From NCBI RefSeq assembly GCF_023055435.1, contig NW_025963957.1:7502001-7566000 (forward strand): a DNA stretch of 64,000 nt, given 5' to 3'. Of the stretch, positions 5,351 to 32,683 are shown one piece after another. The DNA is from Haliotis rufescens (lineage: Eukaryota). The notes under the pieces were generated by a model that worked only from the letters and a program-made list of their open reading frames with translations, ran no database searches and had not been told where the DNA came from. The first letter of the stretch is position 1. Each line of letters begins with the position of its first letter. The position numbers were made by a program, and so were the translations under genes.

Positions 5351-5367
5351 ATAATTTACATATCATG

Positions 5368-7518: not shown

Positions 7519-10487
7519 TAATTTATTTGTTGTTACTTTTAAATACTCTAACACGCAGTGATGGGAGACTGTCCGCTTTGTGTGGATCAAACTAAATGCA
7601 AATTATCCATTTACAGTAGCATGCGATACATAGATCTCAAGTAAGGAGACTCCAGTAATAGATAGAGGTTATCACGCGAGTGTGTTTGGGGATGGTAAAT
7701 ATCCTGCATTAGGAATAAACATTGTATTTAGCGATCGTGATAACCTCTTTATCATATAATGTCATTCTTTAATTCTGTGCTTTAAAATCGCTTTCCCTCT
7801 CTCACAAACATTACCAAAATATTGCGAGTTTTCCTGGAATGGGCGCATTAATATTTATTACGTCACAGGGTAAGTGATGTGTCAGTCGGACAGTGACAGT
7901 AGCCAATATAGTTCCAACTGAAATCTGTTTCTTGTACAGTGGCGAAGCAACATATTCGCAAAACAACAGTTGTTTTTAATTGCCTTTCGCGGCAATCCAT
8001 CGGTCTGTCCGCTAGAGTAACTGCCCTTTATCAAAGGGAAGCTACTCTAACCCTAGTCTATGAGACGTCACGGCCACGTTCAGACGTTGTTGACAGTCGG
8101 TCTGTCCTGTCATTACGTTAAGAAGTGCAATCAGATGTACACACAGCGACTAAACGAAACAAGGTAACAATTCAAACATATTTCGGCAAAATCCAACTAT
8201 TTTAATTTGGGGAGAAGGTCTAAAAGCACAGATATGGCTACTGATCCCGCTTGGCTAGGCCTCGTGCCCTCGCAAAATTGTTTCGAAATTTATATCTCCA
8301 AAGTTGCCAAAACTTATAAAATGCCTTAGCTACGTCACAGTTGGACACTGATTTTCAGTATATTAGACTGTTCTTTTCATAATGATAGCAATTATCCCTG
8401 TAGTTTATCCAGATTCCCGATGGTTAATTCTGACTCGATCGCCGATTGACGAGGGCGACGCCATGTTTGTTTATAAACAGTGAAAGTAGTCCTACTTGAC
8501 CTTTGATATTTTCATCTCTATCCGCATATGACCCCAACGGATATCGTTTTTTATCCGTTGGCTTTATCCTGCCGAGAAACCTAGTAACCCATTATATGAA
8601 AAGACTGATTATTTGTATATACATGATTGGACTTTCAGTGATGACACCAGGTGTGTGTGAGAATTGAAGTATTGTATATCATCAATATGGCATGCATTCG
8701 CTATGTAGGTAAACACATAGGTTTACTACTCATGGAAGAAGTGTGTCGGACACGCAGCGCTTCTACAGAACCACAATAGTCGGTATGGTGTTATGGGTTA
8801 TGTATGCCTCTTTTCTGTTTCCGGTTGACAAATAATCCATGTGTTGTGTTCACACTCGGCTGCTTGGTCATGCCAATCTGTACGCGTGTTGTGGTTGAAG
8901 ATGGGAACTTTAATGTTGTGAATAAAGGATGTACGCTACTCTACTTCAACGTTGTGGTTATTGTATACAAATTATGCATATCCAGTAACATGTCATATTT
9001 CTACCACAACACAGGGAACTGAAGTTATCACAACCTAAGGGAAACAACAAATGATTAAATGGTTTGAACGTGACTACTGCAGTGGCGATACCAGGTGTTA
9101 GTGGTACTCGATACAGTACAAACTAACAATTTGCCAAGTGCCTCTCGGGTTGTACACGTTGCCTGTCTGCTTATGCATACATTAATGAGAGGTGTCACAC
9201 TTTAGCGAAAGCATGCCACTTTCAGATGTACCCATAATGAGTAATTTCCCCTTACTTTAATATATATCATCAGTTCAAAATGTTTCAGAACAGGGAATAT
9301 ACATTTACAAACCTCATACCAAATTTAATCAAATGGTCAGTGTGCGTTTTTCTTTTGTATATAGGAAAACAATTTGCTCGAAAAAACAACCTGTTAATAA
9401 AGGGGCGGGCATGTCACGTAGCTTTGATTCACATACATGGTTCATTTACGTGGGATGTCTGAACTGATGTCTGATGTCCAATAGCGTGGATCGATGCTCT
9501 TGATGTCATTCACTGGATTGTCTGGTCCAGACTCGATTATTTACAGACCGCCGGCATATAGCTGGAATATTGCCTAGTGCGGCGTTAAACAACAAACAGA
9601 CAGACATATCTATCTTCAGAAGTTATACTATACCGTATAAGGTTATAACATTCAAGGCCTCAGTATAACTTACATGTCCGATGCAATTCCATATGGTGAC
9701 TTTTACTATATGTCCCCGCGTTGTTTTCAGACAAACAATTGACTTGCCTTTGCATGAGTTTGTGACGTGTGCCTTCGGTGTTGCAGGATTCGCTCACGTT
9801 TGCGCGAAGACCTGGCATCATCACTGATGGTGATTCATAAACACATGCTCTTGTGATTATGGAAATGTTTTTCTTTATTTATACGAACAGCATATTTAAT
9901 ATATCTATTGCTGTAAGAAGGAATTGCTGTTAATCACTCCTTTAATTAGACACGATGACGAAATATATGCTGACGTTTTTAACAAGTACATTGTATGTAC
10001 TCAGTGGTATTGGGAGTGTGGAGCATTGATCGTGTAGTATGGACATAACGTTGGTGATACAACAGACAAACATCTGCAGGTATATATTTTAGGATCAGAA
10101 TATTGCATAAAATAAGATAAATTTAGGTTTTGTCGCTTTGCATATGGCATAATGTAACTGTCTGCGTGAGAATGTACATAGTGTATTTGTTATGATGTAA
10201 AAGGTGCTTTTGTACAATGTACTTTTAGTAGAGATTTCGCGTCGTTGTGAAACGATTTTTGTCGCTTATATTTCATTGTATTGTTTGGGGGTTCAGTCTG
10301 GCTGCAGGTTTCACTGAGGCTCTGTGTTCATGTAGGGGTTTAAGTGCAGAGTTGCGTTCCCTTAGAGTACCAGGATCCGCTGATAGTGTAGCAGATACGC
10401 TATATAGGGACTGACCATTTTATGCTTCGGGTGGGCAGGGCATAAAATAAATTGTCCCTAAAAATTCTTGAAAAATATAATTATGCT
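7519..10487 (+). repeat. Tandem segmental duplication, copy 2 (carries a ~940-bp insertion)
   Basis: Collinear with 5368-7395. Homology ends inside a small TIR element at ..aaatataa(c/t)tatgct. Confidence 0.95.
7663..8603 (+). mobile_element. Non-autonomous hairpin/subTIR element, family A (terminal hairpin partly deleted)
   Basis: Absent from duplication copy 1 (empty site taataga|actgatt). Second copy in reverse orientation at 31661-32683. Confidence 0.85.
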
Positions 10488-10593
10488 AAATACACGGTTT
10501 TGACGCTGAAGCTGAAAAATATATAATCTCGGGACAAAATCCCAGCATCCTCCCAACCCCTCCCCGCCATAATATGAAATGGTTGGCTCCGTA
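10405..10593. mobile_element. Small MITE-like element with imperfect TIRs
   Basis: Ends tagggactgaccattt ... aaatggttggctccgta. The left half is also present at 7313-7395. Confidence 0.45.
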
Positions 10594-11685
10594 TTATGTC
10601 CTTTGATTTGATGCTATCACAATCATACATTGAAGGTGTAAGTCCATGTATTAGGTTTCAACCAGGTTGTAATTATATACAATTAATAAACATGAAACAT
10701 AAAGCATGTAACATTATGGTGGAAAAGCATTTCACTGACATACATAATACATATAGTCATCGTCAGAGAACAACTAGTCTCGATTATCTCGATTATTCCA
10801 CTGGGAGTAATATAAATTCTACCATGAATTTGGAAATTACTCGATTCTGACTGGTCAATCAGAGGTTGTAAAATCACAATAAACCCCCTCTGATTGAAAT
10901 AGCCAATTTGACTTCCAAGCATAGCTAATACTCATGGAAAAGTACTTTTCCTTAGTCATTGTCGATAAGCATATTTAAATAATTATATTTGTAATTATAG
11001 GCTACAAGATGCAAAAATGCGGTTATTGCAATATTCAATGGATGTGTGTCAGTACTTTTCGTGCAAAAAAAGAAGAAATAAGATAGCAATCGACAGAGAG
11101 AATGTATCTAAAGTTTTGAGGGGATAAGAGAACTTAGAATTTGGCGCTTTTCTATATACAATGTACGACTGTGACGTCGTATCGTGTGCCTTACAATGAA
11201 CGGCATTATGACGTCACGATGGTGACGAGCGGTGTAGAAAAAAAGCATTTCAAGGCTTGCTTAGTTTTCTTTAGGGGTGTCCACCTCATGTTCGCTTACC
11301 AAGTTGTCGTGCTTATTTGCTTTCAATGCCTGTCATATGTTCGAGTGAAGTATTACTGTGTAAACAAACTGATTGAGTATATATAAAGAGAGCGCCAAAT
11401 TTTGTTAAAGGTTCTTGTCGGTGATACTTCCGTACTTCATGTCGACAATCCACTCAAAATACTGAACTCGGCGTTCGGTTCCAAATTCAATTTAGCGCTG
11501 TTAAATCTGCAGGTAACCCAGCTCCACATTGAAAACACAGTTTGCTTCTCTCCAAACTGATAATTGAAAATCAGTGATGAAACCAGGTGCCTGCGCAAAT
11601 GGGCAAGTGTGTCCTGACCTACAGGACAGCACCCGCCTCCCACAAAACATGCGGTACAAAGTATGTGTGTTGCCTGACAAAACAG

Positions 11686-11812
11686 GTTACGGCAATGCAA
11701 ACAGTTTACGGCAATACAAACAGTTTACGGCAATACAAACAATTTACGGCAATACAAATAGTTTACGGCAATACAAACAGGTTACGGCAATACAAACAGT
11801 TTACGGCAAATA
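11686..11812. repeat. 19-bp minisatellite (acagtttacggcaatacaa)n just upstream of the sulfotransferase ATG
   Basis: About 6 tandem copies. Confidence 0.9.
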
Positions 11813-12008
11813 CAATCGATTTCAATACAACTGTTTCCTTTCTTATTTCTTAAGAATAACTGCATCACCTGTACATTGAAGTAAAAACACTATGTTTCAT
11901 ATTGATTGACGTTATCGATTCCTTTACAACGTCTGTTGGATTAGCTCGAGAAATCCACACACTGACAGAGTACAGGTCCGACTGTTCAGCGCCTTACTGT
12001 ATCGCGCC

Positions 12009-12224
12009 ATGCTGGGAAGAGTGCATCTGAACCTCACATGTCTGGGCCTTCTCGTCCTCGTGTCTTTGTTGGTCGTTGCGCTCTTAAACGACAGTATCAT
12101 CCATAACATATCGTTTTCCACGCTTTCGGGACAGAGGTCCAGTCCTGGCCATGCTGCATCAAAGCCCATGCTGCCTTACTTGTACGATCAGCAGAAACGA
12201 AAAGCACTTGACATCATGAACACG
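12009..12224 (+). CDS. CHST15: CHST15-like carbohydrate sulfotransferase, exon 1 of 7 (type II membrane anchor)
   Basis: gccATG, short N-tail, TM helix LGLLVLVSLLVVALL, phase-0 donor ACG|gtgaga. Confidence 0.8.
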
Positions 12225-12365
12225 GTGAGATATAGTAGTTACACTGACATTTTCACTACCCACAATCTCACACTGTCAAGTCGAAGTAAAAGAATATATA
12301 TTTTGTGAAGGCTTGCCTGCAAGTGTACAACAGATTTACACTGGAAGTTAGCAAGGACGGTGTCC

Positions 12366-13106
12366 TGGCGGACTACTTTAACAACTGACAAATGATGGAT
12401 GCATGTACAGATGTACCCTTAGGTTAGGCTGAAAGTACGTAATGACGGTATATACACCAGGCGGACTACTTTAACAACTGACAACTGATGGATGCAAGTA
12501 CCCTTAGGTTAGGCTGGAAGTACGTAATGACGGTATATACACCAGGCGGACTTCTTTAACAACTGACAACTGATGGATGCAAGTACAGATGTACCCTTAG
12601 GTTAGGCTGGAAGTACGTAATGACGGTATATACACCAGGCGGACTTCTTTAACAACTGACAACTGATGGATGCAAGTACAGATGTACCCTTAGGTTAGGC
12701 TGGAAGTACGTAATGACGGTTTATACACTAGGCGGACTACTTTAACAACTGATGGATGCAAGTACAGATGTACCCTTAGGTTACGCTTGAAGTACGTAAT
12801 GACAGGATATACACTAGGCGGACTTCTTTAACAACTGACAACTGACGGATGCATGTACAGATATACCCTTGGGTTACGCTTGAAGTACGTAATGACAGTG
12901 TATACACTAGGCGGACTTCTTTAACAACTGACAACTGACGGATGCATGTATAGATGTACCCTTGGGTTATGCTTGAAGTACGTAATGGCAGTATATACAC
13001 TAGGCGGACTACTTTAACAAATGATGGATGCATGTACAGATGTACCCTTAGGTTAGGCTGGAAGTACGTAATGACGGTATATACACTAGGCGGACTACTT
13101 TAACAA
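12366..13106. repeat. ~93-bp tandem repeat (~8 copies) in sulfotransferase intron 1
   Basis: ggcggact(a/t)ctttaacaactgac...gaagtacgtaatgac..tatacac recurs at about 93-bp spacing. Confidence 0.95.
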
Positions 13107-13473
13107 GATTCGGGAAAAATATGGCAACTATGCGGGCCTCGCTTACGAAGCTTACGCTTCCTAAGTGCCAAGTTTCCCAACTCCCCAATGGTCTCGGTGC
13201 CTTAGGTTTGATACCTCCCAATCTGTTGACTGACATTGAGAGAGTACGAAAAGCTGTTCGACCAGTCAGCGCTTCCTGGGAGAAGTCCCATTCGCTGTCT
13301 GGGCTGCGTGTAAAGGGGGCAAGGGCCCTGAGCTGATGATGAGCCTAACCAGCCTGACTGTGCCAGGATCATCCGAACCTTCTTTTCTGCATTTATGCTT
13401 TTACTTATAATTATGATGATGGTATATGATGATGATGACTCCTTGCTTTCTGGCATTGAATGTTTCATTGCAG

Positions 13474-13756
13474 TCGATGTTTACATTCAACCAAGCATTT
13501 AAAAATCCATGCTGGTGGGAAACATCACTTGATGAGAGCAACTGTGTTGATCTGATGGAAGACGCACGGAAACCACTGCGACAAGCGCACAGAGACCTCA
13601 GGAGCAACAAGAGGATCCTGCGATGCCTGCCGTATTTCCAGATAGTGGGTCAGGCCAAATGTGGAACAACTGATCTCTTCAGTAAACTTCTCATGCACCC
13701 ACACGCAGTACCGACCATGGTGAAGGAGACGCAGTGGGTTAGCCGCGTGCGAACAA
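13474..13756 (+). CDS. CHST15: CHST15-like sulfotransferase, exon 2 (5'-PAPS-binding loop)
   Basis: ttgcag|SMFTF..FKNPCWWE..LRCLPYFQIVGQAKCGTTDLF..HP..KE..W, phase 0 to 1, donor A|gtacgt. Confidence 0.92.
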
Positions 13757-13946
13757 GTACGTTTCTCTAGCTGATCTATCTACGAGCTGTCAACATTTGC
13801 TCAACGTATAACCATCAACGTATATATCCCTACCCCCATCTCTTACATGAGTAAATGACGAATCGACAAACAACTTCATATGAAAGCTCTAGAGCTGAGC
13901 TTGTTGGCTGCTGTAATTAATAAATAATTATATTTTATCGTTTCAG

Positions 13947-14039
13947 ACCAGTTTTGTTCTCCCGTCAACACGTACGTGAACTACTTTCAAAAGAGTGCCA
14001 ATAGTATCAGACAAGGATTGCGGGATAAAGCTATAATAG
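13947..14039 (+). CDS. CHST15: CHST15-like sulfotransferase, exon 3
   Basis: tttcag|(N)QFCSPVNTYVNYFQKSANSIRQGLRDKAII(G)|gtaaac, phase 1 to 1. Confidence 0.85.
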
Positions 14040-14099
14040 GTAAACCACTTTGTCTTTGAGGTCTGATCATAATTTTTCATAGTTCTGTTTTAGATATTG

Positions 14100-15700
14100 A
14101 GATTACTACACTTACACACTTACGAGTTGTAAGATCAATGGTATCTGACAGGCACGAGTGCAGTAATCTGTTTCTTACACACCCGAAAATCGCACCTTTT
14201 TAGCATCGATTTGATCAATTTTGTCTATTCTCATGATCGCAGTAGCGCATTAATATATAACACCACTGTCATAAGCGACGTCATCCTATGTACTGCTTAC
14301 TACTCAGAAATAATGTGACCCTACACAATAAGGTTTCCGCCATATCTGCGGATTATCCAGGCATTGATGATAATGCAAACTATACAAAAAAAAGAACGCG
14401 TTTGGTGCCGAGTTAAAACAATGTTTACTTCCGTATGACATCACTACCTTTGACCGACTTTTACAAAATGGCTTCTTCACTGACAACAGTACGCGGGGTT
14501 TCTAGAGGAGGGTTTTCGTTGATTGAGGGATCGTAATACATAAATGTGTCACATAAGTAATCAAAAACATTCTGACAATCTGCCTACTGTTATTTGTTTA
14601 CCATGTTTTCCAATGTAACAAAGAGAATTGGTCAGAAATGCAAATAACTACCGTCATCGTTGAGCATGATTTAGCATCAGTCATAGCGTCACACAGGACG
14701 GAAACTTTTACGGCTTCTGTTGAATTTACCACATCATTGTAATGTATATATGTGTAATTCCATAATTAGGGCAACGATATTCTTCCCATGAATAATCTCA
14801 AACGCATGATCGAGCCAATGTATGCAACAATTAAACGAAAGTGCCTCTAAAAATGCTACACAGTGTAAAATCTGAATTTTGCTTTTTTACATTTCAGCAA
14901 GTACAGTTTTCGTTTCCATGCCTAATTTATTTCGCATGTTTTCATCTAGATTATTTGAATTGGTGACAAAGACCATTTGTCACTTGTTTCTAAAATGTAT
15001 GAGGAATTCAGGGATGCATGTATAGCAGCTGAGTTTGAAATATACCTTATAGAAAAGGCGTCTCATAACCGGCATTTTGTGAACACAATCCAATATGGCG
15101 GAATGTACACTTCGCATTCAATCCGATTATATATCAGCGACGTTTCAGAACTATCATGAGTGATTTGATACCCGTGATCACTAATATGCTATTTCCCTAC
15201 TTTAGTTATTCGAGTAATTTTCAGAAGTCACTTTCAGAAATTTTGATTTGCCTATAATGAAATTAAATGATAAACAGAAGGGTGAATACATTGTGAAGTG
15301 TATTAGTTTGCGTGATGTATTTTGAATCTTATTCGACTTAGAAGTGAGGGTTGAAGAGGGGGGACATATTTGTCGCTGTGGCATCCAGGGGGTTTACACT
15401 CTGAAAAACGATAACGTTGACATAACAACAGATAATGTAACTGATCATAATAACAAACTCGCAGACGAGGACGAGGTTGTTTATTTTTACACAGTCCTGT
15501 GGTTCAATGCAGACGCAGGTGAACATTCGACTGAAGCACAAGCCTCTCAGATTGACTTACACTCAGGAAAGTAGTCCGTTATCATCTGACCTCATGTCAT
15601 CACCATGGAGTAACCAATCACGGGCCTGGAATTCGATCTCACCCAAATTTTTGATACCAGTTATCTCAAATGGGTTTCTCACCCACAGGTGTGTAAGAAA
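14100..15700 (+). mobile_element. Non-autonomous hairpin/subTIR element, family C (~1.6 kb) in intron 3
   Basis: Terminal hairpin 14100-14169 (agattactacact..agtgcagtaatct), then tttcttacacacc (14171-14183), whose perfect inverted partner ggtgtgtaagaaa is at 15688-15700. Confidence 0.6.
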
Positions 15701-15703
15701 TGG

Positions 15704-16100
15704 AGAATCTAATCCGAGTGTTATTTGATATCAAATATATCAACACGCGTTGATGAAAATAAAAAGGGTTTTCTTCCACTTTTATCGACGAGTGTTGATA
15801 TATTTGATATCAAAAGACACGAGGGTGAGAATTTTTTTATCATCCAACATCATTCTTCCAACTTTTTAAGTTTGTAGACAGGAATAAGCTGTTGTGTCTT
15901 AAATGTAAAAGGTACTGCTAACAGCTTCGGCAGCAGAGCCATTCGTGATGTCATTTGATTGTGACGTCATGGTAACAATGACAACACAATGGTCTGCAAA
16001 GCATTGTGATGCGATTATATTGCAGCAACATCTACAATGTACACAACGCTTGATCTCACCCAAGCCATATCTCCTGTGGGAGCAAATTTGGGATGATAAA
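15704..16100 (+). mobile_element. Non-autonomous hairpin/subTIR element, family B
   Basis: Hairpin 15704-15833, then tttatcatcc (from 15836) with partner ggatgataaa (16091-16100). A related reversed copy lies at 28214-28500. Confidence 0.7.
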
Positions 16101-16868
16101 TTGGGATTGACCCCTTTTCGTATCCATGTGAAGTTCATGCCGGTGTGTTTATTTCGCACAAACACCTATGTAAAGGGTAGTGGTCTCATAAACGAGCTAT
16201 GTATTTGCAATTTCAAATTCCGAAATTTATGCAAAAAGTTGACGTAACCTAGGTTGATCTAACCAATAAAAAATGTCCATTTAAAAAGCGCCTAATTCCA
16301 AATCGATAACATTCTGATGTCGCATACAATGTTAGTTTAAAGAGACGTTAAAAAGATAAGTCATAATTTGCGCTTGAAAGCAGAATGGGTTTGCGTTATC
16401 CGAGGATAGTCTGGATGAGTGTTCCTCTTCCTGACTGCTCCTAGACTGAAGGATCGAAGGCCACATGATTAAAGTGTCCATCCGGGGACTTCAAGAAGAT
16501 GCTTAGGTCCTGAAAGCAAGACCCTTATGTGGCAGGATTCAGTGAGTAGGTCACAGAAGTAGCCAGAAGCAGAGCCGTTCACACGTCAAGGACAGCATCT
16601 TAAAGTCCTCTCCTGCTCTCACTTGCCGACACTGATGTGCTGGAGTGAAGCTGTCAAAGCTTAAGTGTTCTGAATCAGTTGTAGCCGAGGGATTAGGTCC
16701 TGAGCTATATTATGTAGCTAACTGTTGCCACAGTCACGGCAAGACAATATCAGGAATCGCCCGCACTGGACGCATGTCATTCCTACCTGTTGGAGACGCG
16801 TGGGATGTTGAAATCGCTTTATTAATTACGAATATGTTTTTATTGAACACGGACTAATTATTTTTCAG

Positions 16869-17025
16869 GGGAAGCTACTCCAAGCTATTTGTCGATTAAT
16901 CGATTGTGGGACCTGTTGCCAGGCAACGAGGGGTGCACGGAGCCATGTGTCACTAATGCTGACATTATCCACCACCTGAATCCAAACACGAAGATCATCA
17001 TAATTCTCCGCAATCCCACTGACAG
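16869..17025 (+). CDS. CHST15: CHST15-like sulfotransferase, exon 4 (3'-PB motif)
   Basis: tttcag|(G)EATPSYLSINRLWDLLPGNEGCTEPCVTNADIIHHLNPNTKIIIILRNPTD(R)|gtgact, phase 1 to 2. Confidence 0.93.
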
Positions 17026-17418
17026 GTGACTGGTGTGGAGCGGATCATGTACCAGGCAGCGTTATAACCCAGCTGACCCACGGGCACGACTCTGCCGGGA
17101 TGGGTCTCCCCTTTAGCTGTTCAACGATGTGCTGGCGTTCTAATCACATATTTAGAATTTGTCCCAATCCCCTATCTATTCATTTAAACTCGTGCTCGTA
17201 TGTTTCGTAACAGAACCAAACGTCTGAACTCGCTTAGCACATATGCAGGTCCTAATATTATTGACACGTCGCCCTGAGCATTGTTAAACTCATTCTCATC
17301 TCCGTGATTTAGTTTAGAGAGAAGAAGTATGTTTGATAATTCCTTTGAAGCATTCCTACATACAACCGTGAATGCAAATCATGCACTTCCTGATGCGTGT
17401 CTGTTGTTACGGTTGCAG

Positions 17419-17590
17419 ACTTTACTCCTACTACTTCCACGTGGAGCGAATAAGTAAAGAAAGGGCGTATAAGGGGGAGTTCCACCAGCTGGTGATGCGG
17501 GAGGTGGCAGAGTACCAGGACTGTCTCAAAACCAACACGCCCCGGAGATGCGCTTACAACTACACGTCTTCATCTGTACCTACGAAAAAG
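17419..17590 (+). CDS. CHST15: CHST15-like sulfotransferase, exon 5
   Basis: ttgcag|LYSYYF..EFHQLV..YQDCLKTNTPRRCAYN..KK|gtactt, phase 2 to 0. Confidence 0.9.
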
Positions 17591-17784
17591 GTACTTAGAC
17601 ACTTTGGGTATGATTTCTTCATCTTCATATGCCTAAAATAATTATACTACATGTATTGTATGCTAGGCGTCTTTGCCTAGGAACAGATGCACCCAATACT
17701 CAACATTCAAGTTCTTGGTCAACATCTTCACACGCTTATCTGCTTTCTGAGCTTCATCTTTCAGAGTATCATGGCATGTTACAG

Positions 17785-17932
17785 ATCGACCTCAGAAGAG
17801 GATTATATTCCATATTTGTCACAGACTGGATGAAAGTATACCCCTCGGAGCAGATGCTCATCCTCAGATTCGAAGACTACAAAAACAAAGTAGAAGAACA
17901 CCTCCAGCAGGTTTTCACTTTCCTCGACCTCA
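17785..17932 (+). CDS. CHST15: CHST15-like sulfotransferase, exon 6
   Basis: ttacag|IDLRRGLYSIFVTDWMKVYPSEQMLILRFEDY..LQQVFTFLDL|gtgaga, phase 0 to 1. Confidence 0.92.
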
Positions 17933-18284
17933 GTGAGAACTTGTTTATTTGAATCCGCCAAATCGTGTTGAATAGCAATGCATTTAGGAAACAATCCTAA
18001 CGCTAGCTGTGAACAAAACGCATATTCATATTTCATACACACGCACAAATACATTCCAAGTTGAAATATATTTTGTTCATCTTTCATAAACTGTGAAGTG
18101 TGTATTTTCTATATCTTAATCTGATGACACTTGGAGTCACACGGGTCGGACACGGCGCCACATTACCTGAGCAGTCCCATAGCTAGGATGCGATGATTAA
18201 TGACAGGCTGGACTAAACTCGCACATTCAGTATCACTTTCAATAAGTCAAAGCGTCTTTAAACCCAACTCACCCACTCACTCAC

Positions 18285-18548
18285 TAGTTTGTTTGTTTAT
18301 TGTTCAACGCCGCACTCAGCAATATTCCAGCTATATGACGGCAGTGTGTAAATAATGGAGTCTGAACCAGACAATCCAGCGATTGACATCGTGAACATCG
18401 ATCCACGCCTCTCGGATGCGATGACATGCATCAACCAAGTCAGCGAGCCTGACCATCCGACCCCGTTAGTGCCCTCTATCGGCATAGTCGCCTTTTATGG
18501 CAAGCATGGGTTGCTGAAAACCTATTCTACCCCGGATCTGCACGGGTC
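18285..18548 (-). mobile_element. SINE family 1, near full length (intron 6)
   Basis: Minus strand runs from gacccgtg to tatagctggaatattgctgagtgcggcgttgaacaataaacaaac. Other fragments at ~4820-4905 (-), 6385-6510, 9475-9600, 49560-49770, 51380-51610 and 52240-52400. Confidence 0.85.
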
Positions 18549-18923
18549 CACTTGCTATAAGACGAGAGTTGGGTGATCATGAGTATCTCACCGAAGGAAA
18601 TGAAGATATGTCACTTCCTGCAGCATACGCAAACAAACCTGAGGACAACATGACAGAACCTGATCCTCATCAGCTTTCAGTCAGGAAACCAGGTGTTCCA
18701 AATCGTTTGACAATATCCTCCTCTAAACAACGGATTCAGTGTTACTAAATTATATGTCTCCGAACATTTTGCCACTCATATGCCTTGTATATCACATACA
18801 TAGATATAACAATTCAATCGTTCATATAAGATGAAAACCACGTGCGTATGTACAAAGATGATACATGCACCAACGTAACGATTCAATTCACAGAGCTCGT
18901 AACCTGGCCATCTTATGTTTCAG

Positions 18924-20670: not shown

Positions 20671-20846
20671 AGTACTCAAACTTCTAAATGCCTCTCAAAG
20701 AAGGTATTCTGGAGTTTGACTCTTAACCTGAATCCCTAAGTACGTATAGACCTGACCTTCCACGAGATCGGCAATGACTCCTTCCCCAAGTAAACTGACC
20801 GATCCTCCATCTTCTTCTTCTTCTTGTTGATAACTTTCTTTACAGT

Positions 20847-21007: not shown

Positions 21008-21029
21008 TTCTGATGATCCGACATTTATA

Positions 21030-21460
21030 CAAGAAGTTGGCATCGCCATGGGCACCAGTTGTTCTCACCTCCTTGCTGATCTGTTTCTTATGCAGATGAA
21101 TGGGAACACAGGAAGATGTGGCCAAGAAATTTAATAACTTAATTTTCATGTATATTGATGATCTGATATCGATCAATAATTGTCAAATAGACAATTACCT
21201 TCAACGTTCCGTGAATAAAAAAGAACAGTGACATTTGGTTCATGTTTAGATTGGTGCAGTCAAGTTACAGTAAAGTATCCACAGGATTGTAGAACAAGAG
21301 GTATCACTTTAACTTTTCAAAAGTCAACTTTTCCTTTATGTCGAGCAATATTCCAGCGGCTCCAGCCTTTGGTGATTACATTAGGTTTGAAGTACAATCG
21401 AGCCTGCCTTTTCAATGAAGATTTCAAAGAGCGGCATGTGATTGTTGCTAAAAATGTTTG
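21030..21460 (+). mobile_element. Decayed Penelope-type reverse transcriptase fragment
   Basis: Frameshifted motifs QEVGIAMGTSCSHLLADLFL, YIDDLISINN and (VNFPF)MSSNIPAAPAFG. Further fragments at 40030-40240 (KRDNFNF..FLSSNIPAAPAY) and 59175-59360. Confidence 0.8.
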
Positions 21461-22007
21461 AATAGGGTTATAACGACTGGTACCATTCCCTGTACCACAT
21501 GATCCCATATTTAGTTGAAGGTGAGCAGCTGACTTGCCCTTGAATGTGTTTGTGACGAGCGTCACCCCTGGGGAAGGGTATGCACACCCTTTGCGAACAC
21601 CTGGTGTCCTCGCTATTAAACAGTGATTCTTAAACACAAGCTCATGATACACTTAAAATCGTACAATGTACTTTCTGCTTTTAGAAGTGATTTCTTATCA
21701 TTATGGTTATTGTGTGGTTTATATTCACATCATTCGATGCCTCAGTAAAGCTTTCGAAATGTTTTATGTGGAAGACATTTCCAAATTTCACGCGTCAGTA
21801 GCCACAGTTATGTTTTTCAGGTGAAGACTGTTCTTGCCTTTGCATGTGTTTGTGAAAGATGGCATGGGGATGAATACGCTAACTGCGTGTTTGTTCTCTA
21901 ATGCCGTACTCGGCAATATTCCAGTTATATGTCGGTCGTCTGTTTTCAATGGACCCTGGACCGTGGACCCTGGACCCTGGAGCAGTCAATACAGTGGTTA
22001 TCATCAC

Positions 22008-25000
22008 GAGCAACAATGTGTGGAGTTGGGACACGATGACATACATCAATCAAGTTAGCGACCCTGACACCCGATCCCGTTAGCAGAGCAACAATGTGTG
22101 GAGTTGGGACACGATGACATACATCAATCAAGTTAGCGACCCTGACACCCGATCCCGTTAGCAGAGCAACAATGTGTGGAGTTGGGACACGATGACATAC
22201 ATCAATCAAGTTAGCGACCCTGACACCCGATCCCGTTAGCAGAGCAACAATGTGTGGAGTTGGGACACGATGACATACATCAATCAAGTTAGCGACCCTG
22301 ACACCCGATCCCGTTAGCAGAGCAACAATGTGTGGAGTTGGGACACGATGACATACATCAATCAAGTTAGCGACCCTGACACCCGATCCCGTTAGCAGAG
22401 CAACAATGTGTGGAGTTGGGACACGATGACATACATCAATCAAGTTAGCGACCCTGACACCCGATCCCGTTAGCAGAGCAACAATGTGTGGAGTTGGGAC
22501 ACGATGACATACATCAATCAAGTTAGCGACCCTGACACCCGATCCCGTTAGCAGAGCAACAATGTGTGGAGTTGGGACACGATGACATACATCAATCAAG
22601 TTAGCGACCCTGACACCCGATCCCGTTAGCAGAGCAACAATGTGTGGAGTTGGGACACGATGACATACATCAATCAAGTTAGCGACCCTGACACCCGATC
22701 CCGTTAGCAGAGCAACAATGTGTGGAGTTGGGACACGATGACATACATCAATCAAGTTAGCGACCCTGACACCCGATCCCGTTAGCAGAGCAACAATGTG
22801 TGGAGTTGGGACACGATGACATACATCAATCAAGTTAGCGACCCTGACACCCGATCCCGTTAGCAGAGCAACAATGTGTGGAGTTGGGACACGATGACAT
22901 ACATCAATCAAGTTAGCGACCCTGACACCCGATCCCGTTAGCAGAGCAACAATGTGTGGAGTTGGGACACGATGACATACATCAATCAAGTTAGCGACCC
23001 TGACACCCGATCCCGTTAGCAGAGCAACAATGTGTGGAGTTGGGACACGATGACATACATCAATCAAGTTAGCGACCCTGACACCCGATCCCGTTAGCAG
23101 AGCAACAATGTGTGGAGTTGGGACACGATGACATACATCAATCAAGTTAGCGACCCTGACACCCGATCCCGTTAGCAGAGCAACAATGTGTGGAGTTGGG
23201 ACACGATGACATACATCAATCAAGTTAGCGACCCTGACACCCGATCCCGTTAGCAGAGCAACAATGTGTGGAGTTGGGACACGATGACATACATCAATCA
23301 AGTTAGCGACCCTGACACCCGATCCCGTTAGCAGAGCAACAATGTGTGGAGTTGGGACACGATGACATACATCAATCAAGTTAGCGACCCTGACACCCGA
23401 TCCCGTTAGCAGAGCAACAATGTGTGGAGTTGGGACACGATGACATACATCAATCAAGTTAGCGACCCTGACACCCGATCCCGTTAGCAGAGCAACAATG
23501 TGTGGAGTTGGGACACGATGACATACATCAATCAAGTTAGCGACCCTGACACCCGATCCCGTTAGCAGAGCAACAATGTGTGGAGTTGGGACACGATGAC
23601 ATACATCAATCAAGTTAGCGACCCTGACACCCGATCCCGTTAGCAGAGCAACAATGTGTGGAGTTGGGACACGATGACATACATCAATCTAATTAGCGAC
23701 CCTGACACCCGATCCCGTTAGCAGAGCAACAATGTGTGGAGTTGGGACACGATGACATACATCAATCTAATTAGCGACCCTGACACCCGATCCCGTTAGC
23801 AGAGCAACAATGTGTGGAGTTGGGACACGATGACATACATCAATCTAATTAGCGACCCTGACACCCGATCCCGTTAGCAGAGCAACAATGTGTGGAGTTG
23901 GGACACGATGACATACATCAATCTAATTAGCGACCCTGACACCCGATCCCGTTAGCAGAGCAACAATGTGTGGAGTTGGGACACGATGACATACATCAAT
24001 CAAGTTAGCGACCCTGACACCCGATCCCGTTAGAAGAACAACAATGTGTGGAGTTGGGACACGATGACATACATCAATCTAATTAGCGACCCTGACACCC
24101 GATCCCGTTAGCAGAGCAACAATGTGTGGAGTTGGGACACGATGACATACATCAATCAAGTTAGCGACCCTGACACCCGATCCCGTTAGAAGAACAACAA
24201 TGTGTGGAGTTGGGACACGATGACATACATCAATCTAATTAGCGACCCTGACACCCGATCCCGTTAGCAGAGCAACAATGTGTGGAGTTGGGACACGATG
24301 ACATACATCAATCTAATTAGCGACCCTGACACCCGATATCGTTAGCAGAGCAACAATGTGTGGAGTTGGGACACGATGACATACATCAATCTAATTAGCG
24401 ACCCTGACACCCGATCCCGTTAGCAGAGCAACAATGTGTGGAGTTGGGACACGATGACATACATCAATCTAATTAGCGACCCTGACACCCGATCCCGTTA
24501 GCAGAGCAACAATGTGTGGAGTTGGGACACGATGACATACATCAATCTAATTAGCGACCCTGACACCCGATCCCGTTAGCAGAGCAACAATGTGTGGAGT
24601 TGGGACACGATGACATACATCAATCAAGTTAGCGACCCTGACACCCGATCCCGTTAGCAGAGCAACAATGTGTGGAGTTGGGACACGATGACATACATCA
24701 ATCAAGTTAGCGACCCTGACACCCGACCCCGTTAGCAGAGCAACAATGTGTGGAGTTGGGACACGATGACATACATCAATCTAATTAGCGACCCTGACAC
24801 CCGATCCCGTTAGCAGAGCAACAATGTGTGGAGTTGGGACACGATGACATACATCAATCAAGTTAGCGACCCTGACACCCGATCCCGTTAGCAGAGCAAC
24901 AATGTGTGGAGTTGGGACACGATGACATACATCAATCAAGTTAGCGACCCTGACACCCGATCCCGTTAGCAGAGCAACAATGTGTGGAGTTGGGACACGA

Positions 25001-26562
25001 TGACATACATCAATCTAATTAGCGACCCTGACACCCGATCCCGTTAGCAGAGCAACAATGTGTGGAGTTGGGACACGATGACATACATCAATCAAGTTAG
25101 CGACCCTGACACCCGACCCCGTTAGCAGAGCAACAATGTGTGGAGTTGGGACACGATGACATACATCAATCTAATTAGCGACCCTGACACCCGATCCCGT
25201 TAGCAGAGCAACAATGTGTGGAGTTGGGACACGATGACATACATCAATCAAGTTAGCGACCCTGACACCCGACCCCGTTAGAAGAACAACAATGTGTGGA
25301 GTTGGGACACGATGACATACATCAGTCTAATTAGCGACCCTGACACCCGATCCCGTTAGCAGAGCAACAATGTGTGGAGTTGGGACACGATGACATACAT
25401 CAATCAAGTTAGCGACCCTGACACCCGACCCCGTTAGCAGAGCAACAATGTGTGGAGTTGGGACACGATGACATACATCAATCTAATTAGCGACCCTGAC
25501 ACCCGATCCCGTTAGCAGAGCAACAATGTGTGGAGTTGGGACACGATGACATACATCAATCAAGTTAGCGACCCTGACACCCGACCCCGTTAGAAGAACA
25601 ACAATGTGTGGAGTTGGGACACGATGACATACATCAATCAAGTTAGCGACCCTGACACCCGACCCCGTTAGAAGAACAACAATGGGTGGAGTTTGGACAC
25701 GATGACATACATCAATCAAGTTAGCGACCCTGACACCCGACCCCGTTAGCAGAGCAACAATGTGTGGAGTTGGGACACGATGACATACATCAATCTAATT
25801 AGCGACCCTGACACCCGATCCCGTTAGCAGAGCAACAATGTGTGGAGTTGGTACACGATGACATACATCAATCAAGTTAGCGACCCTGACACCCGACCCC
25901 GTTAGAAGAACAACAATGGGTGGAGTTTGGACACGATGACATACATCAATCAAGTTAGCGACCCTGACACCCGACCCCGTTAGCAGAGCAACAATGTGTG
26001 GAGTTGGGACACGATGACATACATCAATCAAGTTAGCGACCCTGACACCCGATCCCGTTAGCAGAGCAACAATGTGTGGAGTTGGGACACGATGACATAC
26101 ATCAATCAAGTTAGCGACCCTGACACCCGACCCCGTTAGCAGAGCAACAATGTGTGGAGTTGGGACACGATGACATACATCAATCAAGTTAGCGACCCTG
26201 ACACCCGATCCCGTTAGCAGAGCAACAATGTGTGGAGTTGGGACACGATGACATACATCAATCAAGTTAGCGACCCTGACACCCGACCCCGTTAGCAGAG
26301 CAACAATGTGTGGAGTTGGGACACGATGACATACATCAATCAAGTTAGCGACCCTGACACCCGACCCCGTTAGCAGAGCAACAATGTGTGGAGTTGGGAC
26401 ACGATGACATACATCAATCAAGTAAGCGACCCTGACACCCGACCCCGTTAGCAGAGCAACAATGTGTGGAGTTGGGACACGATGACATACATCAATCAAG
26501 TTAGCGACCCTGACACCCGACCCCGTTAGCAGAGCAACAATGTGTGGAGTTGGGACACGATG
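22008..26562. repeat. 78-bp satellite array (~58 copies) derived from an internal segment of SINE family 1
   Basis: Period 78 (identical line starts every 780 bp). The unit aligns to 18393-18470, and the flank 21890-22007 is the rest of the SINE. Confidence 0.97.
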
Positions 26563-26762
26563 ATATATCCTTGTTTGGGCATATGTAGGTGTCAGGTACA
26601 GATGTGAGTTTGATATATCTTTCTTTGGGCATATGTAGGTGTAAGGTACAGATGTGAGTTTGATATATCCTTGTTTGGGCATATGTAGGTTTCAGGTACA
26701 GATGTGAGTTTGATATCTCTCTGTGCATATGTAGGTGTCAGGTACAGATGTGAGTTTGATAT
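26563..26762. repeat. 50-bp minisatellite (4 copies) sharing the core tgtaggtgtcaggtacagat with the 43-bp array
   Basis: Direct tandem copies. Confidence 0.9.
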
Positions 26763-26779
26763 ATGTTTGTAAGAAAATG

Positions 26780-28174
26780 CATGGAAATGTTTTTGCTTGT
26801 GTTCGTACGGGAAATTTAGAAATTTTAGAACTGACGCATTTCCGACCGATTTAGATAATAGTGCAACAAAAGGTATTTTTGTGAATGAGTTTATTGATGA
26901 AATCAAATTGTTGCTGTTTGCGGATTACATTGTCTTTGTAGCAGAACTCTGTAATTGAGCATCTTTTTGTGATACCTGGGGTCTGGGAGTGAACCTGGAT
27001 AAATCAAATATAATTGTATTCAGAATTAAAGGTGTTATAACACCACTTGGAAAAATGGAACTATAAAAATACAGAACTGAAAATAGTGACATAAAATAAA
27101 TACTTGGGCATTGTCTTTCCATCACGTCTTCTGTTGTCTTAGGTCTGTGACACCCTAGCAACACAGGCCAAGAAAACATGTTTTCCTAGTTTTAAGTTGA
27201 CTAAGCTCTATCCGTACATGCCATTTAAGGTAATTGTTTCTATATTCGATAGTAAAATAGCTTCGATCGCTTGTTATGGAAGTGAAATTTGAGGATTTAT
27301 ATTTGGAGAAAGTATAGAAAAAGTCCAAAGTGTTTTAAAGATATTTGCAAATAAGTAATAAAGCATCATCTAATGCGGTTCTTGGAGAAGTTGGCCGTTA
27401 TCATCTGAATGTTATTTATTTCAGCCGATGTATAAGATATTGGTGTAGATTGATGCGCAGGAATTCAAATCGACTGCCACATGCTTGTTATAAATGCTGA
27501 AAGTACAAGATGATAATGGTGGTGTAAATTGGGCATCTCATGCGAGAATGCTTTTGTTTAAATCTGGTAATGGTTATGCGTGGATATCACAGGACTGTGG
27601 ACATATACATTGTTTTATGGAATTATTCAAGAGATGAAGTATTGTCATGGTTGTACAAAACTGGACTCTAAACATTAACAATTCTGTGTTCTTGAACCAT
27701 TATGCGTCAAATAAATCTCTATTTGAAACTAAACTCTATATAACCTCATGCTTTGATAAGGATCTTGTAAGAGTTTAAGCGAAATTTCGATGTTTAGCAC
27801 ATGGTTTAAAAGAACAAAAACAGCGCTTTAGCAAGCAGTTTATGCAACCGGAATTTGTATTCTGTGAAAAGTGTGATTTATAATAATTAGAAAATGAATA
27901 TCATTTTGCACTAGTTTGCCGATATTACCAGAAAAGCAGAGATAGTTTAATTCCCCGTTATCTTCATCATTGTCCATAAAAACTGAAATTTGCCTCCCTG
28001 ATGTCCCCCCAGAATGTTAATGTATAAGAGGTTTTGTTCTTTATCTAAAGAGAAGTTTGCCAGTTTATCATTCAACAGAACTGTTAATCTGTATTAAAGA
28101 TAGTACGCATGTTATATGAAAAATAATTGTACTCTAGGCCACCAGGCCTTCAATACTGAGTAAACTCTCTCTCT
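26780..28174 (+). mobile_element. 5'-truncated, decayed non-LTR retrotransposon (RT C-terminal region and Cys/His knuckle)
   Basis: Broken motifs WGLGVNLDKSNIIVFR, YLG, FDSKIASIACYGSEI*GF, IEKVQ, SSNAVLGEVGRY, IRYWCRL, C..C..ENEYHFALVC..Y..R; (CT)n tail. Confidence 0.85.
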
Positions 28175-28213
28175 GTAAGGATATGTGCAGGTGTCAGGTA
28201 CTTATGTGAAGTT

Positions 28214-28500
28214 CATTTATCAACCAAAACTGACTTCTACGGGAGATATGTTGTAGAAGTCGCTGCAATGAAATTACGTAACAATGCTTTGCAAACCATT
28301 GTGATGTATTTTGGTCCATGACGTCACAATCAAATGACATCACTAATGTTACTCTAATGGCTCTGTTACTGAAGCTGTTAGCAGTACTCTTAAGACACTG
28401 CTTATTACTGTCTACATACTGAAAGTGGAAAAAACTCCTCGGCAAGTTTCGTGTTTTTTGTTGATATTTGATATCAAAAGACACGAGGGTGAGATTCTCT
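28214..28500 (-). mobile_element. Family B hairpin/subTIR element, reversed and internally deleted
   Basis: catgacgtcacaatcaaatgacatcac is the reverse complement of 15945-15971. The outer hairpin arm is at 28460-28500. Confidence 0.7.
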
Positions 28501-30030
28501 ATATATCTTTGTTTGGGTATGTGTAGGTGTCAGGTAATAATGTGAGTTTGAAATATCTTTGTCCGGGTACATATAGGTGTCAGGTGCAGATGGATATGTC
28601 ATTGTCTGAGTGTCTGTAGGTGTCAGGTGCAGATTGATATGTCATTGTCTGAGTGTCTGTAGGTGTCAGGTACAGATTGATATGTCATTGTCCGAGTGTC
28701 TGTAGGTGTCAGGTGCAGATTGATATGTCATTGTCTGAGTGTCTGTAGGTGTCAGGTACAGATTGATATGTCATTGTCTGAGTGTCTGTAGGTGTCAGGT
28801 GCAGATAGATATGTCTTGTCTGAGTGTCTGTAGGTGTCAGGTACAGATTGATATGTCATTGTCTGAGTGTCTGTAGGTGTCAGGTGCAGATGGATATGTC
28901 TTGTCTGAGTGTCTGTAGGTGTCAGGTACAGATTGATATGTCATTGTCTGAGTGTCTGTAGGTGTCAGGTGCAGATTGATATGTCATTGTCTGAGTGTCT
29001 GTAGGTGTCAGGTACAGATTGATATGTCATTGTCCGAGTGTCTGTAGGTGTCAGGTACAGATTGATATGTCATTGTCCGAGTGTCTGTAGGTGTCAGGTG
29101 CAGATGGATATGTCATTGTCTGAGTGTCTGTAGGTGTCAGGTGCAGATTGATATGTCATTGTCTGAGTGTCTGTAGGTGTCAGGTACAGATTGATATGTC
29201 ATTGTCTGAGTGTCTGTAGGTGTCAGGTGCAGATGGATATGTCTTGTCTGAGTGTCTGTAGGTGTCAGGTACAGATTGATATGTCATTGTCTGAGTGTCT
29301 GTAGGTGTCAGGTGCAGATGGATATGTCTTGTCTGAGTGTCTGTAGGTGTCAGGTACAGATTGATATGTCATTGTCTGAGTGTCTGTAGGTGTCAGGTGC
29401 AGATGGATATGTCTTGTCTGAGTGTCTGTAGGTGTCAGGTACAGATTGATATGTCATTGTCTGAGTGTCTGTAGGTGTCGGGTACAGATTGATATGTCAT
29501 TGTCCGAGTGTCTGTAGGTGTCAGGTACAGATTGATATGTCATTGTCTGAGTGTCTGTAGGTGTCAGGTACAGATGGTTATGTCACTGTCTGAGTGTCTG
29601 TAGGGGTCAGGTGCAGATGGATATGTCATTGTCTGAGTGTCTGTAGGTGTCAGGTACATATGGATATATCATTGTCTGAATGTTTGTAGGTGTCAGGTAC
29701 AGTTAGATACACTAATTAAGACGGGCCGACCTTGTGTTCATGGTCTGGTGAACACAGGTCAATGGCCGCTCATTAACTCAAGATTCACATCTCACTGTTT
29801 TGATTTATCTCACTTTCCATTTGATATATTTTCCAACTTCAACTGAAACCCGGTCCCGTGTTACACGCATGGCACACGCGTGTGCAACGAGTGACACACG
29901 CGTTCTTAACGCGTGTCAGGGGAATGAACTTTTAGGCAGTAGTGTATGTCATTGTCCGAGTGTCTGTAGGTGTCAGGTACAGATGGTTATGTCACTGTCT
30001 GAGTGTCTGTAGGTGTCAGGTGCAAATGGA
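28501..30030. repeat. 43-bp minisatellite (tgtctgtaggtgtcaggtRcagattgatatgtcattgtctgag)n, interrupted at ~29705-29945
   Basis: Direct tandem copies. Confidence 0.95.
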
Positions 30031-30666
30031 CAGACGAAGCCTTCGTTTGTTGACAAATTCACTTTTATTTGGTTGTGAATATTACACTAATTAGACATCA
30101 CACAGGACATACATCTGATCTTGTATCAAGATTTAAATCATCCCTTACTTGTGTGTTAATATGTTTTTCGTATTTATGAAAATATACCAATTATTGATAA
30201 ATTTGTGTTCCAATGAATAACTGCTAGTGTACTAACACAAATACAAATAATTACTCTGGATGAGGTCATTCCAGTGACCTAGCTGCGAACCGAAAATGTT
30301 AATGTACCTGACGCCATCTTGTTTTCTCCTTGACGGGTCAATGTTCATCACGTGACAGGTCAAAACCGATCATGTTACGAGTCAATATTCGAGGTCAGCG
30401 TCAGTCACACGATTTGGGGGTCTTCATTGAAATGTATTGTTTTGTCCCGTGTTACGGATTAACCAATGGAGTTTCAAGATTCTCAATCTTTAACAACGTG
30501 AAATGATAGAAACGGTTTATATACATGGGAAAGTCTTGAGAACAACTTTATCACTGCAGACCTTCTGACATCACTACCTACCAACTATCGCTACACCAAG
30601 AGTCCGCCTTACAGACAAGGTGCTGAGACTGCTGAACCATCCTTGCTGGATGTCGGGATGAGATGG

Positions 30667-30845
30667 TCAGCCCGCAAACGCGTACTTCGTGTAAGTGATA
30701 ATTGGGTGTTCGCAGACTTTGCAAGCACCGCAACATTTGAGATTTCCCGGGCACTGATAGTCGAAGGTACATTCCGGAGGTTGGCCACACAACACACGGC
30801 CCCGGTGATAGTGATACACAGCGGCTGGGCAGAAGCCTCGTCTCA
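30667..30845 (-). CDS. Secreted repeat/WAP protein, exon 4 of 4: WAP four-disulfide core and stop
   Basis: ctttcag|(V)RRGFCPAAVYHYHRGRVLCGQPPECTFDYQCPGNLKCCGACKVCEHPIITYTKYAFAG*. 8 Cys in WAP spacing; this frame is not in the ORF track. Candidate AATAAA at 30069-30064. Confidence 0.88.
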
Positions 30846-31038
30846 CTGAAAGAGATGAAATATAATTGCAGACAGTGACGTGAACAGTTTACATATTGGT
30901 ATGTCGTGTCATGGTTACAACAGAAATGGAGCGTATTGCTGACCGGTTAAGTCTATTATGCCCAGTTGAATACTTTTTCAGACTGGTCTGATCATGATTT
31001 GTTTATAAATTGGGTTTGTTATCGCCTCCTCTTGTACG

Positions 31039-31204
31039 NNNNNNNNNNNNNNNNNNNNNNNNNNNNNNNNNNNNNNNNNNNNNNNNNNNNNNNNNNNNNN
31101 NNNNNNNNNNNNNNNNNNNNNNNNNNNNNNNNNNNNNNNNNNNNNNNNNNNNNNNNNNNNNNNNNNNNNNNNNNNNNNNNNNNNNNNNNNNNNNNNNNNN
31201 NNNN
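31039..31204. other. Assembly gap (N run) within intron 3 of the WAP gene
   Basis: Run of N. Confidence 1.
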
Positions 31205-31378
31205 CCGGACTGATGCTGATTTATAGTGATAACTGCCAGGGATACCCCACTTAGACACAGTATACTGACTCCGAGCCGATCAGTCCTTGTTTTAGCCCCT
31301 TAACGCCGAGCGGCAGACAGGGTAACAACAAGTGCCATCTTTTAACGCATTTTGGTATGACGATCCCGGGGATCGACG
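31205..31378 (-). mobile_element. SINE fragment (family 3, molluscan-type core)
   Basis: cagtatactgactccgagccgatcagtc..aacgccgagcggcagacagggtaacaacaagtgccatctttt..tggtatgacg..ggggatcga resembles widespread molluscan SINE cores (from memory). Single copy here. Confidence 0.5.
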
Positions 31379-31660
31379 GTTGATTATAATTCAACATGCC
31401 ATCCAACGACTACAACACGTTACATCGAGTGTCCTTTGAATTCACAAACTGAATGACATAGTTTTCTCCAATAGAGGAGTTGTCTGTCAAAGTGGCTGCT
31501 GCGGTGGTTATTAACAACATTCAAGGTGTCAGCTGTAACATGCATGTGGCTATTTTAAAATACGTTAATTTGATGTTAGGCGATTCCGAGAAAGGATCAA
31601 CGCTGACACAACGGAGAAAACAGGTAGTATTTTACTGTAAACAACAGACACATATCTTTG

Positions 31661-32683
31661 TTTATCATATAATGGTTAGGTTTCTCGGCAGGATAAAGCC
31701 AACGGATAAAAACGATATCCGTTGGGGTCATATGCGGATAGAGATGCAAATATCAAAGGTCATGTAGGGATTACTTTCACTGTTTATAAACAAACATGGC
31801 GTCGCCCTCGTCAATCGGCGATCGAGTCAGAATTACCCATCGGGAATGTGGATAAACTACAGAGATAATTGCTTTCATTATCAAAAGAACAGTCTAATAT
31901 ACTGAAAATCAGTGTCTAACTGTGACGTAGCTAAGGCATTTTATAAGTTTTGGCAACTTTGGAGATATAAATTTCGACACAATTTTGCGAGGGCACGAGG
32001 CCTAGCCAAGCGGGATCAGTAGCCATATCTGTGCTTGTAGACCTCTGCGGCTTGAACCTTTCTCCACAATTTAAAATAGTTGGATTTTGCCGAAATATGT
32101 TTTAATTGTTACATTGTTTCGTTTTGTCGCTGTGTGTACATCTGACTACACTTCTTAACGTTATGACAGGACAGACCGACTGTCAACAACGTCCGACCGT
32201 GGCCGCGACGTCTCATAGACTAGGGTTAGAGTAGCTTCCCTTTGACAAAGGGCAGTTACTCAAGCAGACAGACCGATGGATTTCCGCGAAAGGCAATTAA
32301 GAACAATTGTTGTTTTGCGTATATGTTGCTTCGCCACTGTATAAGAAAGAGATTTCAGTTGGAACTATATTGGCTACTGTCACTGTCCAACTGTCACATC
32401 CCTTACCCTGTGACGTAATAAATATTAATGCGCGCATTCCAGGAAAACTCGCAATGTTTCGGTATTGTTTGTGAGAGAGGGAAAGCGATTTTGAAGCAAA
32501 GAATTAAAGAATGACATTATATGATAAAGAGGTTATCACGCTTGTGTGTTTGGGGATGGTAAATATCTTGTATTAGGAATAAACAGTATGTATTTAGCTC
32601 GCCAAGGCTCGCTAAATACAATGTTTATTCCTAATGCAGGATATTTACCATCCCCAAACACACTCGCGTGATAACCTCTTTAT
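31661..32683 (-). mobile_element. Family A hairpin/subTIR element, intact hairpin
   Basis: Reverse complement of 7663-8603. About 160-bp palindrome at 32524-32683, subTIR tttatcatataatg / cattatatgataaa. Confidence 0.88.

Follow-up and report, generated by a model that had tools for sequence, protein, structure and literature searches.

Putative gene-less CryptonA elements with a terminal hairpin beside a complement of their own joined ends, and a possible single-strand route of movement

RESULTS

The window analyzed here is a 64,000-nucleotide (nt) stretch of Haliotis rufescens contig NW_025963957.1 (positions 7,502,001 to 7,566,000), in which lie five copies of three kinds of short noncoding element, termed families A, B, and C (Table 1). 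The original prediction, made from the letters of this stretch, had described them as elements with different bodies and one architecture, a long terminal hairpin with an asymmetric subterminal inverted repeat. This architecture was confirmed with corrections of detail; the bodies of A, B, and C resemble one another only in chance-level matches of 12 to 33 nt, and all three subterminal motifs lie at the positions given for them. The five copies were broadly well placed, their bounds moving by a few bases (each is now accurate to ±1, owing to a shared A). Hairpins had been put at 70 to 160 bp; they are real, and the spread stems from deletions, the intact length being 153 nt. The pairing of each internal motif with an inverted partner was right in position, with one mismatch in the far motif of A1 and no internal motif in B2. 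Two claims fell: the C and B elements, thought to lie 3 bp apart, are fused without a gap, B beginning with a variant of ATAGAG at position 15700, and GATCTCACCCAA, reported as common to B and C, belongs to B, being present in 26 of 28 B copies and in just 1 of 23 copies of C.

Table 1. Elements in the window and their parts (b, far-end arm; b', its internal complement; L numbers are loci of the genome)
Feature	Position	Strand	Remarks
Duplicate of A1 flanks without the element	5368..6500	+	96-97%; empty site 5508/5509, no target duplication
Family A copy A1	7662..8602	+	Predicted non-autonomous CryptonA with part of the hairpin lost; paralogous empty site at 5508
A1 terminal hairpin remnant	7663..7748	+	86 of 153 nt left
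A1 internal complement of far end (b')	7749..7761	+	
A1 far-end arm (b)	8590..8602	+	One mismatch
Family C copy	14096..15699	+	Predicted non-autonomous CryptonA; partner L129/L139
C hairpin remnant	14097..14171	+	75 of 153 nt left
C internal complement of far end (b')	14172..14183	+	
C far-end arm (b)	15688..15699	+	Fused directly to B1
Family B copy B1	15700..16099	+	Predicted non-autonomous CryptonA; partner L115/L174
B1 terminal hairpin	15701..15836	+	Apex lost
B1 internal complement of far end (b')	15837..15845	+	
B1 far-end arm (b)	16091..16099	+	
Family B copy B2	28217..28502	-	Internal deletion; most of hairpin and b' gone
Family A copy A2	31662..32681	-	Full length
A2 far-end arm (b)	31662..31674	-	
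A2 internal complement of far end (b')	32515..32527	-	
A2 intact hairpin	32528..32680	-	153 nt; CGAG-N6-CGAG apex

The window belongs to a 1.33-Gb eukaryotic assembly, in which A, B, and C, used as queries, retrieved 2,788, 2,123, and 2,591 candidate copies; 40 per family were scored and 30 examined, chosen as the best-scoring copies and not by a random draw. Elements of all three families start with (A)TAGAG and end with GATAA (A and B) or AAGAA (C). Copies with a TTAGAG start or with indels were skipped by the automatic end finder, and their ends were read from separate comparisons. Exact end patterns occur genome-wide 1,232 times for the A hairpin end, 1,125 times for the A far end, and 1,768 times for the B far end, all of which are lower bounds. 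Copy boundaries falling elsewhere would, by the reckoning of the original prediction itself, have spoken against it; across the genome they match the hairpin start at one side and the far motif at the other. Neither ordinary terminal inverted repeats (TIRs) nor a 4- to 6-bp terminal direct repeat of the Crypton F/S type was found in A, B, and C; a single A is shared, and not always.

The same ends also flank longer elements coding for a tyrosine recombinase (YR). Following a genome search with PF12012 (DUF3504), 150 of 500 candidates were scored and 90 of these 150 were examined, 30 with 1.5 kb and 60 with 2.5 kb of flanking sequence; they comprise 14 multicopy families and 8 singletons. Family A ends flank L093, L095, L098, and L124, family B ends flank L115 and L174, and family C ends flank L129 (a 2,492-nt element with a 542-amino-acid frame) and L139. 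Copy A2 matches L095 at both ends, with identities of 84.5% (297 nt) and 90.6% (191 nt). The 540-amino-acid frame of the A partner matches PF12012 (E = 1.8e-31) and PF00589 (E = 3.2e-7), both over the cutoff, and the catalytic R, HxxR, and H..Y are complete in L093 (A) and L129 (C); those of the B partner (R-H-R-Y) are spread over L115 and L174, both of them broken. The A, B, and C parents measure 2.2 to 2.5 kb with the hairpin 3' of the gene, and elements of 1.9 to 2.5 kb carry one YR frame each. The structure predicted for the A partner (mean predicted local distance difference test score, 61.9) has Cre as its best PDB match (E = 4.8e-9). PF12012, PF00589, and PF25561 (QRICH1) were the only domains in five scanned proteins, the A partner included, and no reverse transcriptase (RT), DDE transposase, or GCR1_C domain was found in them. 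None of the runs containing these sequences is recorded as RNA; a 1,614-nt contig spans the YR frame, but its source run was only guessed to be RNA, and we claim no expression from it.

When the window was searched by tblastn with four YR proteins, the sole match was to the first 43 residues of the A partner frame; these fall inside the shared far end, and thus the bodies retain no such remnant. An Rfam scan of positions 7000 to 33000 gave no match. Judged by these comparisons, A, B, and C are almost certainly gene-less CryptonA elements that share their ends with three different YR-coding parents, the class being assigned because of DUF3504, which is tied to CryptonA in PMC3212892. The original prediction had left Helentron/HINE and Crypton side by side; the second applies, as CryptonA, and the first drops out. 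A YR was among its candidate enzymes and is borne out by the DUF3504 frames, the long elements that it proposed to look for exist for all three families, and its view of one coherent mobile system is supported.

The modal hairpin length is 153 nt in each family (A, 18 of 29; B, 17 of 29; C, 13 of 25) and 147 to 166 nt in the other measured families with the hairpin 3' of the gene; at least one copy has a long terminal hairpin in 13 of the 14 families, and in the 14th it is tentative. The hairpins of A1, B1, and A2 fold better than shuffled sequences (z = -4.0, -9.3, and -17.0), and that of the window C copy shows no excess stability (z = -1.0) because its center has been lost (75 of 153 nt kept). 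All three families have the apex CGAG-N6-CGAG, with G.A loops occupying positions 16-17 and 72-73 of the stem and, in B and C, also 47-49. Among 14 family representatives, handpicked as intact, two-base loops on the hairpin-first strand read GA or AG in 29 of 33 cases and TC or CT in 0. The strand bearing GA tracks the hairpin end and not the gene: the hairpin lies 3' of the gene in 9 families and 5' in 6 (counting the singleton L121 and one tentative family), and in a tree of this genome's proteins the two types are two clades with 100/100 support. Since the loop rule holds on either side of the gene, polarity goes with the element end, not with the transcript. Loci of the second DUF3504 clade, with a GA-looped hairpin of 115 to 185 nt upstream of the gene, are L112, L116, L121, L134, L136, L147, L149, L150, L155-157, L159, L162, L166, and L175. 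Eighty metagenome loci with related YRs, presumably host DNA, yielded 42 hairpins, 23 of them with such loops; the strand rule is obeyed by 20 of the 23, and a partner repeat lies across the gene in 5 loci. Conversion between hairpin arms was seen in 7 of 210 mismatch cells in A, 7 of 198 in B, and 0 of 132 in C (ungapped register), too few to use.

Directly after the hairpin comes the reverse complement of the element's own end-to-end junction, with a spacer of 5 nt (CCTCT in A, TTTAT in B, TCTGT in C) instead of 7. The 7-nt junction spacer was observed directly in fusions, and the joined ends form a dyad around it. In other families the same 2-nt shortfall was read visually from their conserved ends. 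Whole-element folds pair the far end with the internal copy 9/9 in 12 of 12 cases, on either strand. With the junction complement lying next to the hairpin, one folded strand would hold both element ends.

Target flanks, after tandem and duplicate ones had been dropped (left, 85 to 73; right, 78 to 73), have A in 46 of 73, K in 66 of 73, A at position -2 in 70 of 73, and H, followed by a spacer mostly beginning with A; T stands at position +7 in 53 of 73 (P = 6e-12), and the overall preference is A-K-A-H|(A)N6-T. The base at -3 matches the family's own far end, being T in 21 of 25 cases for A and G in 12 of 22 for C. A target duplication is absent from three of four nontandem empty sites, those of A1, L058 (B), and L069 (C), the last a C element inside another C.

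Insertion at the ends of related elements, as the original prediction had proposed, was upheld. The flank of the hairpin end is the far end of another element in 8 of 85 cases, and the head-to-tail fusions A-A, B-A, B-B, B-C, and C-C have one A in common. Exact B-A fusions number 8, compared with 0.06 to 0.2 expected under a loose target consensus and 8.9 if all A insertions used ATGATAAA, a perfect half-site. The end targeting is real; it may simply reflect this half-site, and a special mechanism is unnecessary. A further hairpin family (stem of ∼190 nt) is fused to an A far end at L265:1516-1730 and in L160.

The insertion footprint is one-sided, the 7-nt spacer staying at the hairpin end. 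A occupies its first position at 1,209 of 1,232 hairpin junctions of family A, versus 963 of 1,125 far junctions (P = 4e-32); so unequal a bias indicates that this base comes from the element at one side and from the target at the other, with the cut just before it. In a genome-wide count made for family A, the reciprocal product, with the spacer at the far end, was found at none of ∼1,100 A far ends; the eight A far ends that are followed by the spacer are all fusions, seven into another A and one into another hairpin family.

DISCUSSION

We put at roughly 60% the reading, drawn from these sequence patterns, that the elements move as one folded strand that is joined to the target by a single-strand exchange. 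The hairpin-first strand would become single, its arm a pairing with a' and the far end b with b', which would place both ends on one continuous strand as a recombination site with about two unpaired bases. Cutting 5' of the first base of the spacer, the YR would exchange this one strand, and no other, with the target. Replication would then resolve the junction, as it does at integron attC sites, and the GA/AG loops would either label the strand or be recognized as a structure. Such an exchange of one strand, resolved by replication, would account for the one-sided footprint, for loops specific to one strand, and for a junction that is bulged and self-splinted.

In integron attC × attI recombination and in CTXphi, a YR acts on a folded single strand, and one exchange is resolved by replication (PMC4792948). 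The likeness would lie in structure being kept over sequence and in unpaired bases guiding the choice of strand, and A, B, and C have the imperfect palindrome with strand-specific unpaired bases that integron-like recombination requires. In contrast to integrons and CTXphi, the site here would be assembled from the two ends of the element and an internal complement, the genomic target is loose, the host is eukaryotic, and the enzyme belongs to the DUF3504 lineage. We lean slightly toward a wider view, in which animal CryptonA elements are the eukaryotic counterpart of integron cassettes, with a self-splinted, bulged single-stranded site, one strand exchanged, replication finishing the reaction, and this end design general across animal hosts.

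Several observations weigh against movement as a single strand, itself a mechanism inferred from genomic sequence. The C copy L079 has an 11-bp target duplication, and no examined A or B parent combines an intact frame with intact ends. The predicted structure does not single out an integron integrase (2a3v ranks 35th). Fold energy shows no strand preference, so the choice of strand would depend on loop identity alone. At the metagenome loci, 2 of the 23 looped hairpins oppose the strand rule, 1 is mixed, and 19 of the 42 hairpins have no such loop. Inverted apexes occur in one coding family (3 of 9 copies) and in 1 A copy; because such copies form no clade, apex polarity is not strict or was flipped after insertion (independent inverted-apex copies are L101, L104, L120, and L019). 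Lastly, the count of reciprocal products presumes canonical staggered cuts at an overlap of 7 nt and repair without direction; if a double-stranded circle underwent directed repair, the footprint may be the same.

That circle is the standing model (PMC13565253; PMC3212892). Applied here, it would have a CryptonA element move as double-stranded DNA, give the hairpin the role of a cruciform, of a replication primer, or of additional arms for recombinase binding, and have junction mismatches repaired one way. The dyad of the joined ends around a 7-nt spacer resembles a classic YR site, the closest fold to the predicted structure is Cre, and clean CryptonF excisions are described in Chlamydomonas (PMC9977147). 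We nevertheless regard this model as unlikely, if well short of negligible. After canonical two-strand YR exchange over a mismatched 7-nt spacer, followed by replication, roughly every second copy should show the reciprocal arrangement, whereas 0 of ∼1,100 far ends have it; a cruciform gives no reason for GA loops on one strand, and the constant 2-nt shortfall of the internal junction copy is left unexplained. The original prediction's single recombinase mobilizing all three families in trans would fit their common ATAGAG start, their similar target bias, and the cross-family fusions B-A, B-C, and C-B. It is very improbable, given that each family has its own coding element, that the base at target position -3 varies with the family's own far end, and that the partners of A, B, and C are not sisters in a tree of this genome's YR proteins, the other partner recombinases being 40 to 49% identical to the A partner where aligned.

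Movement through RNA with an RT borrowed from DIRS elements would make the internal complement equivalent to the DIRS internal complementary region, and in topology the two agree, each being a stretch of a YR element complementary to its two outer ends (PMC6681497). They differ in that an RT/RNase H frame was not seen here and in that our complement adjoins one end and a long hairpin. A slightly lower probability still goes to this route, against which stand the domain content of the five scanned proteins (DUF3504, integrase, and QRICH1 only), the parent length of 2.2 to 2.5 kb, and the independence of structural polarity from gene direction; weakly, no small-RNA reads fell on the hairpin in two runs (X21, 1 read; X22, 25 reads) of one study, possibly on another species. 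Hardly any weight remains for non-autonomous Helentron/HINE (Helitron2) elements, which likewise have asymmetric terminal inverted repeats, a terminal hairpin beside one of them, and no target-site duplication (TSD) (PMC3627910). Those elements depend on a RepHel enzyme and have a short hairpin and a T-run target, whereas the long elements with the present ends code for a YR (no search aimed at RepHel was made), the inner repeat lies ∼153 nt from the end instead of 20 to 30, and the target A-K-A-H|N7-T has no T run. Replitrons (PMC10288648), like Helitron2 and DIRS, differ from the A, B, and C parents in enzyme.

In keeping with published CryptonA elements (PMC3212892), the parents have a single DUF3504-type YR frame with R-H-R-Y (∼2.2 to 2.5 kb here, 1.2 to 2.3 kb there), the gene-less derivatives are abundant and share both ends, and standard TIRs and TSDs are absent. 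The 4- to 6-bp direct repeat that sets Crypton F/S apart from A, B, and C is not reported for CryptonA in the available text of PMC3212892 either. In 2011, Kojima and Jurka detected no terminal repeats for animal Cryptons, all CryptonA entries of supplement 1 being given as "n.d." (PMC3212892). What differs here is that the hairpin has a fixed length, the inverted repeat is split, and the target bias is defined. Eulor5/Eulor6 and the salmon elements Crypton-N1_SSa together with CryptonA-N2_SSa are likewise non-autonomous CryptonA relatives (PMC5753468; PMC3495686), likened to ours by description only; the available portions of these two papers give neither end structure nor mechanism for them. 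Mouse Eulor5A is annotated as a pre-miRNA hairpin (PMC5753468; PMC3495686), a hint that vertebrate relics also fold. In the available text, the sole repeat that a 2022 guide names for Cryptons is a short direct one (PMC8969392), a 2026 paper on Glomhopper reports no detectable repeats (PMC13465315), microsatellite targeting is described for CryptonV (PMC8869645), and a review from 2026, which takes a double-stranded circle as its assumption, says that experiments have not shown the transposition of Cryptons (PMC13565253).

We found no description of Crypton hairpin ends or of a single-strand model in the literature searched; Repbase, Repbase Reports, and Dfam, which lay outside that search, may describe the ends. 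Relative to known CryptonA elements, the end structure and the insertion footprint appear to be new. With the ends known exactly, a target consensus and a candidate cut site at hand, and the DNA substrate defined, the mechanism of Cryptons becomes testable with oligonucleotides and one protein. If the single-strand reading is true, a eukaryotic YR would act on folded single-stranded DNA, as otherwise described for integrons and CTXphi (PMC4792948), the hairpin and complement would be a structural signature by which to classify abundant gene-less Helentron-like repeats, and the enzyme would be a compact integrase that usually leaves no target duplication.

OTHER FEATURES OF THE WINDOW AND GENOME

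Over positions 13500 to 16700, which contain the fused C and B1 elements, steps in read depth agree with the element bounds, without giving an estimate of copy number, and no empty allele was seen among the joints listed (contigs from four runs). Immediately upstream of C, positions 13947 to 14039 form a candidate exon (AG/GT bounds, open frame), and the C and B1 pair may sit within an intron. Around A1, positions 5368 to 6500 and 7519 to 9592 are a local duplication of 96 to 97% identity, with A1 in one copy. An imperfect hairpin of ∼168 nt (79%) at positions 1358 to 1525 has a short match in L095 and is possibly an older element of the same design.

Elsewhere in the genome, contig C323 has a cluster of DUF3504 matches at 3.19 to 3.52 Mb with open frames of 515 to 925 amino acids, perhaps a tandem family of domesticated genes; a hairpin was not found at L161, the locus of this cluster that was examined. 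The window also holds long minisatellite arrays at 22008-26567, 28574-29709, 55302-57194, and 62255-64000 (periods 78, 43, 42, and 23) and pieces of a very common short dispersed repeat at 5209-5352, 6385-6520, 9477-9612, 18284-18548, 49555-49767, 51379-51591, and 52237-52406.

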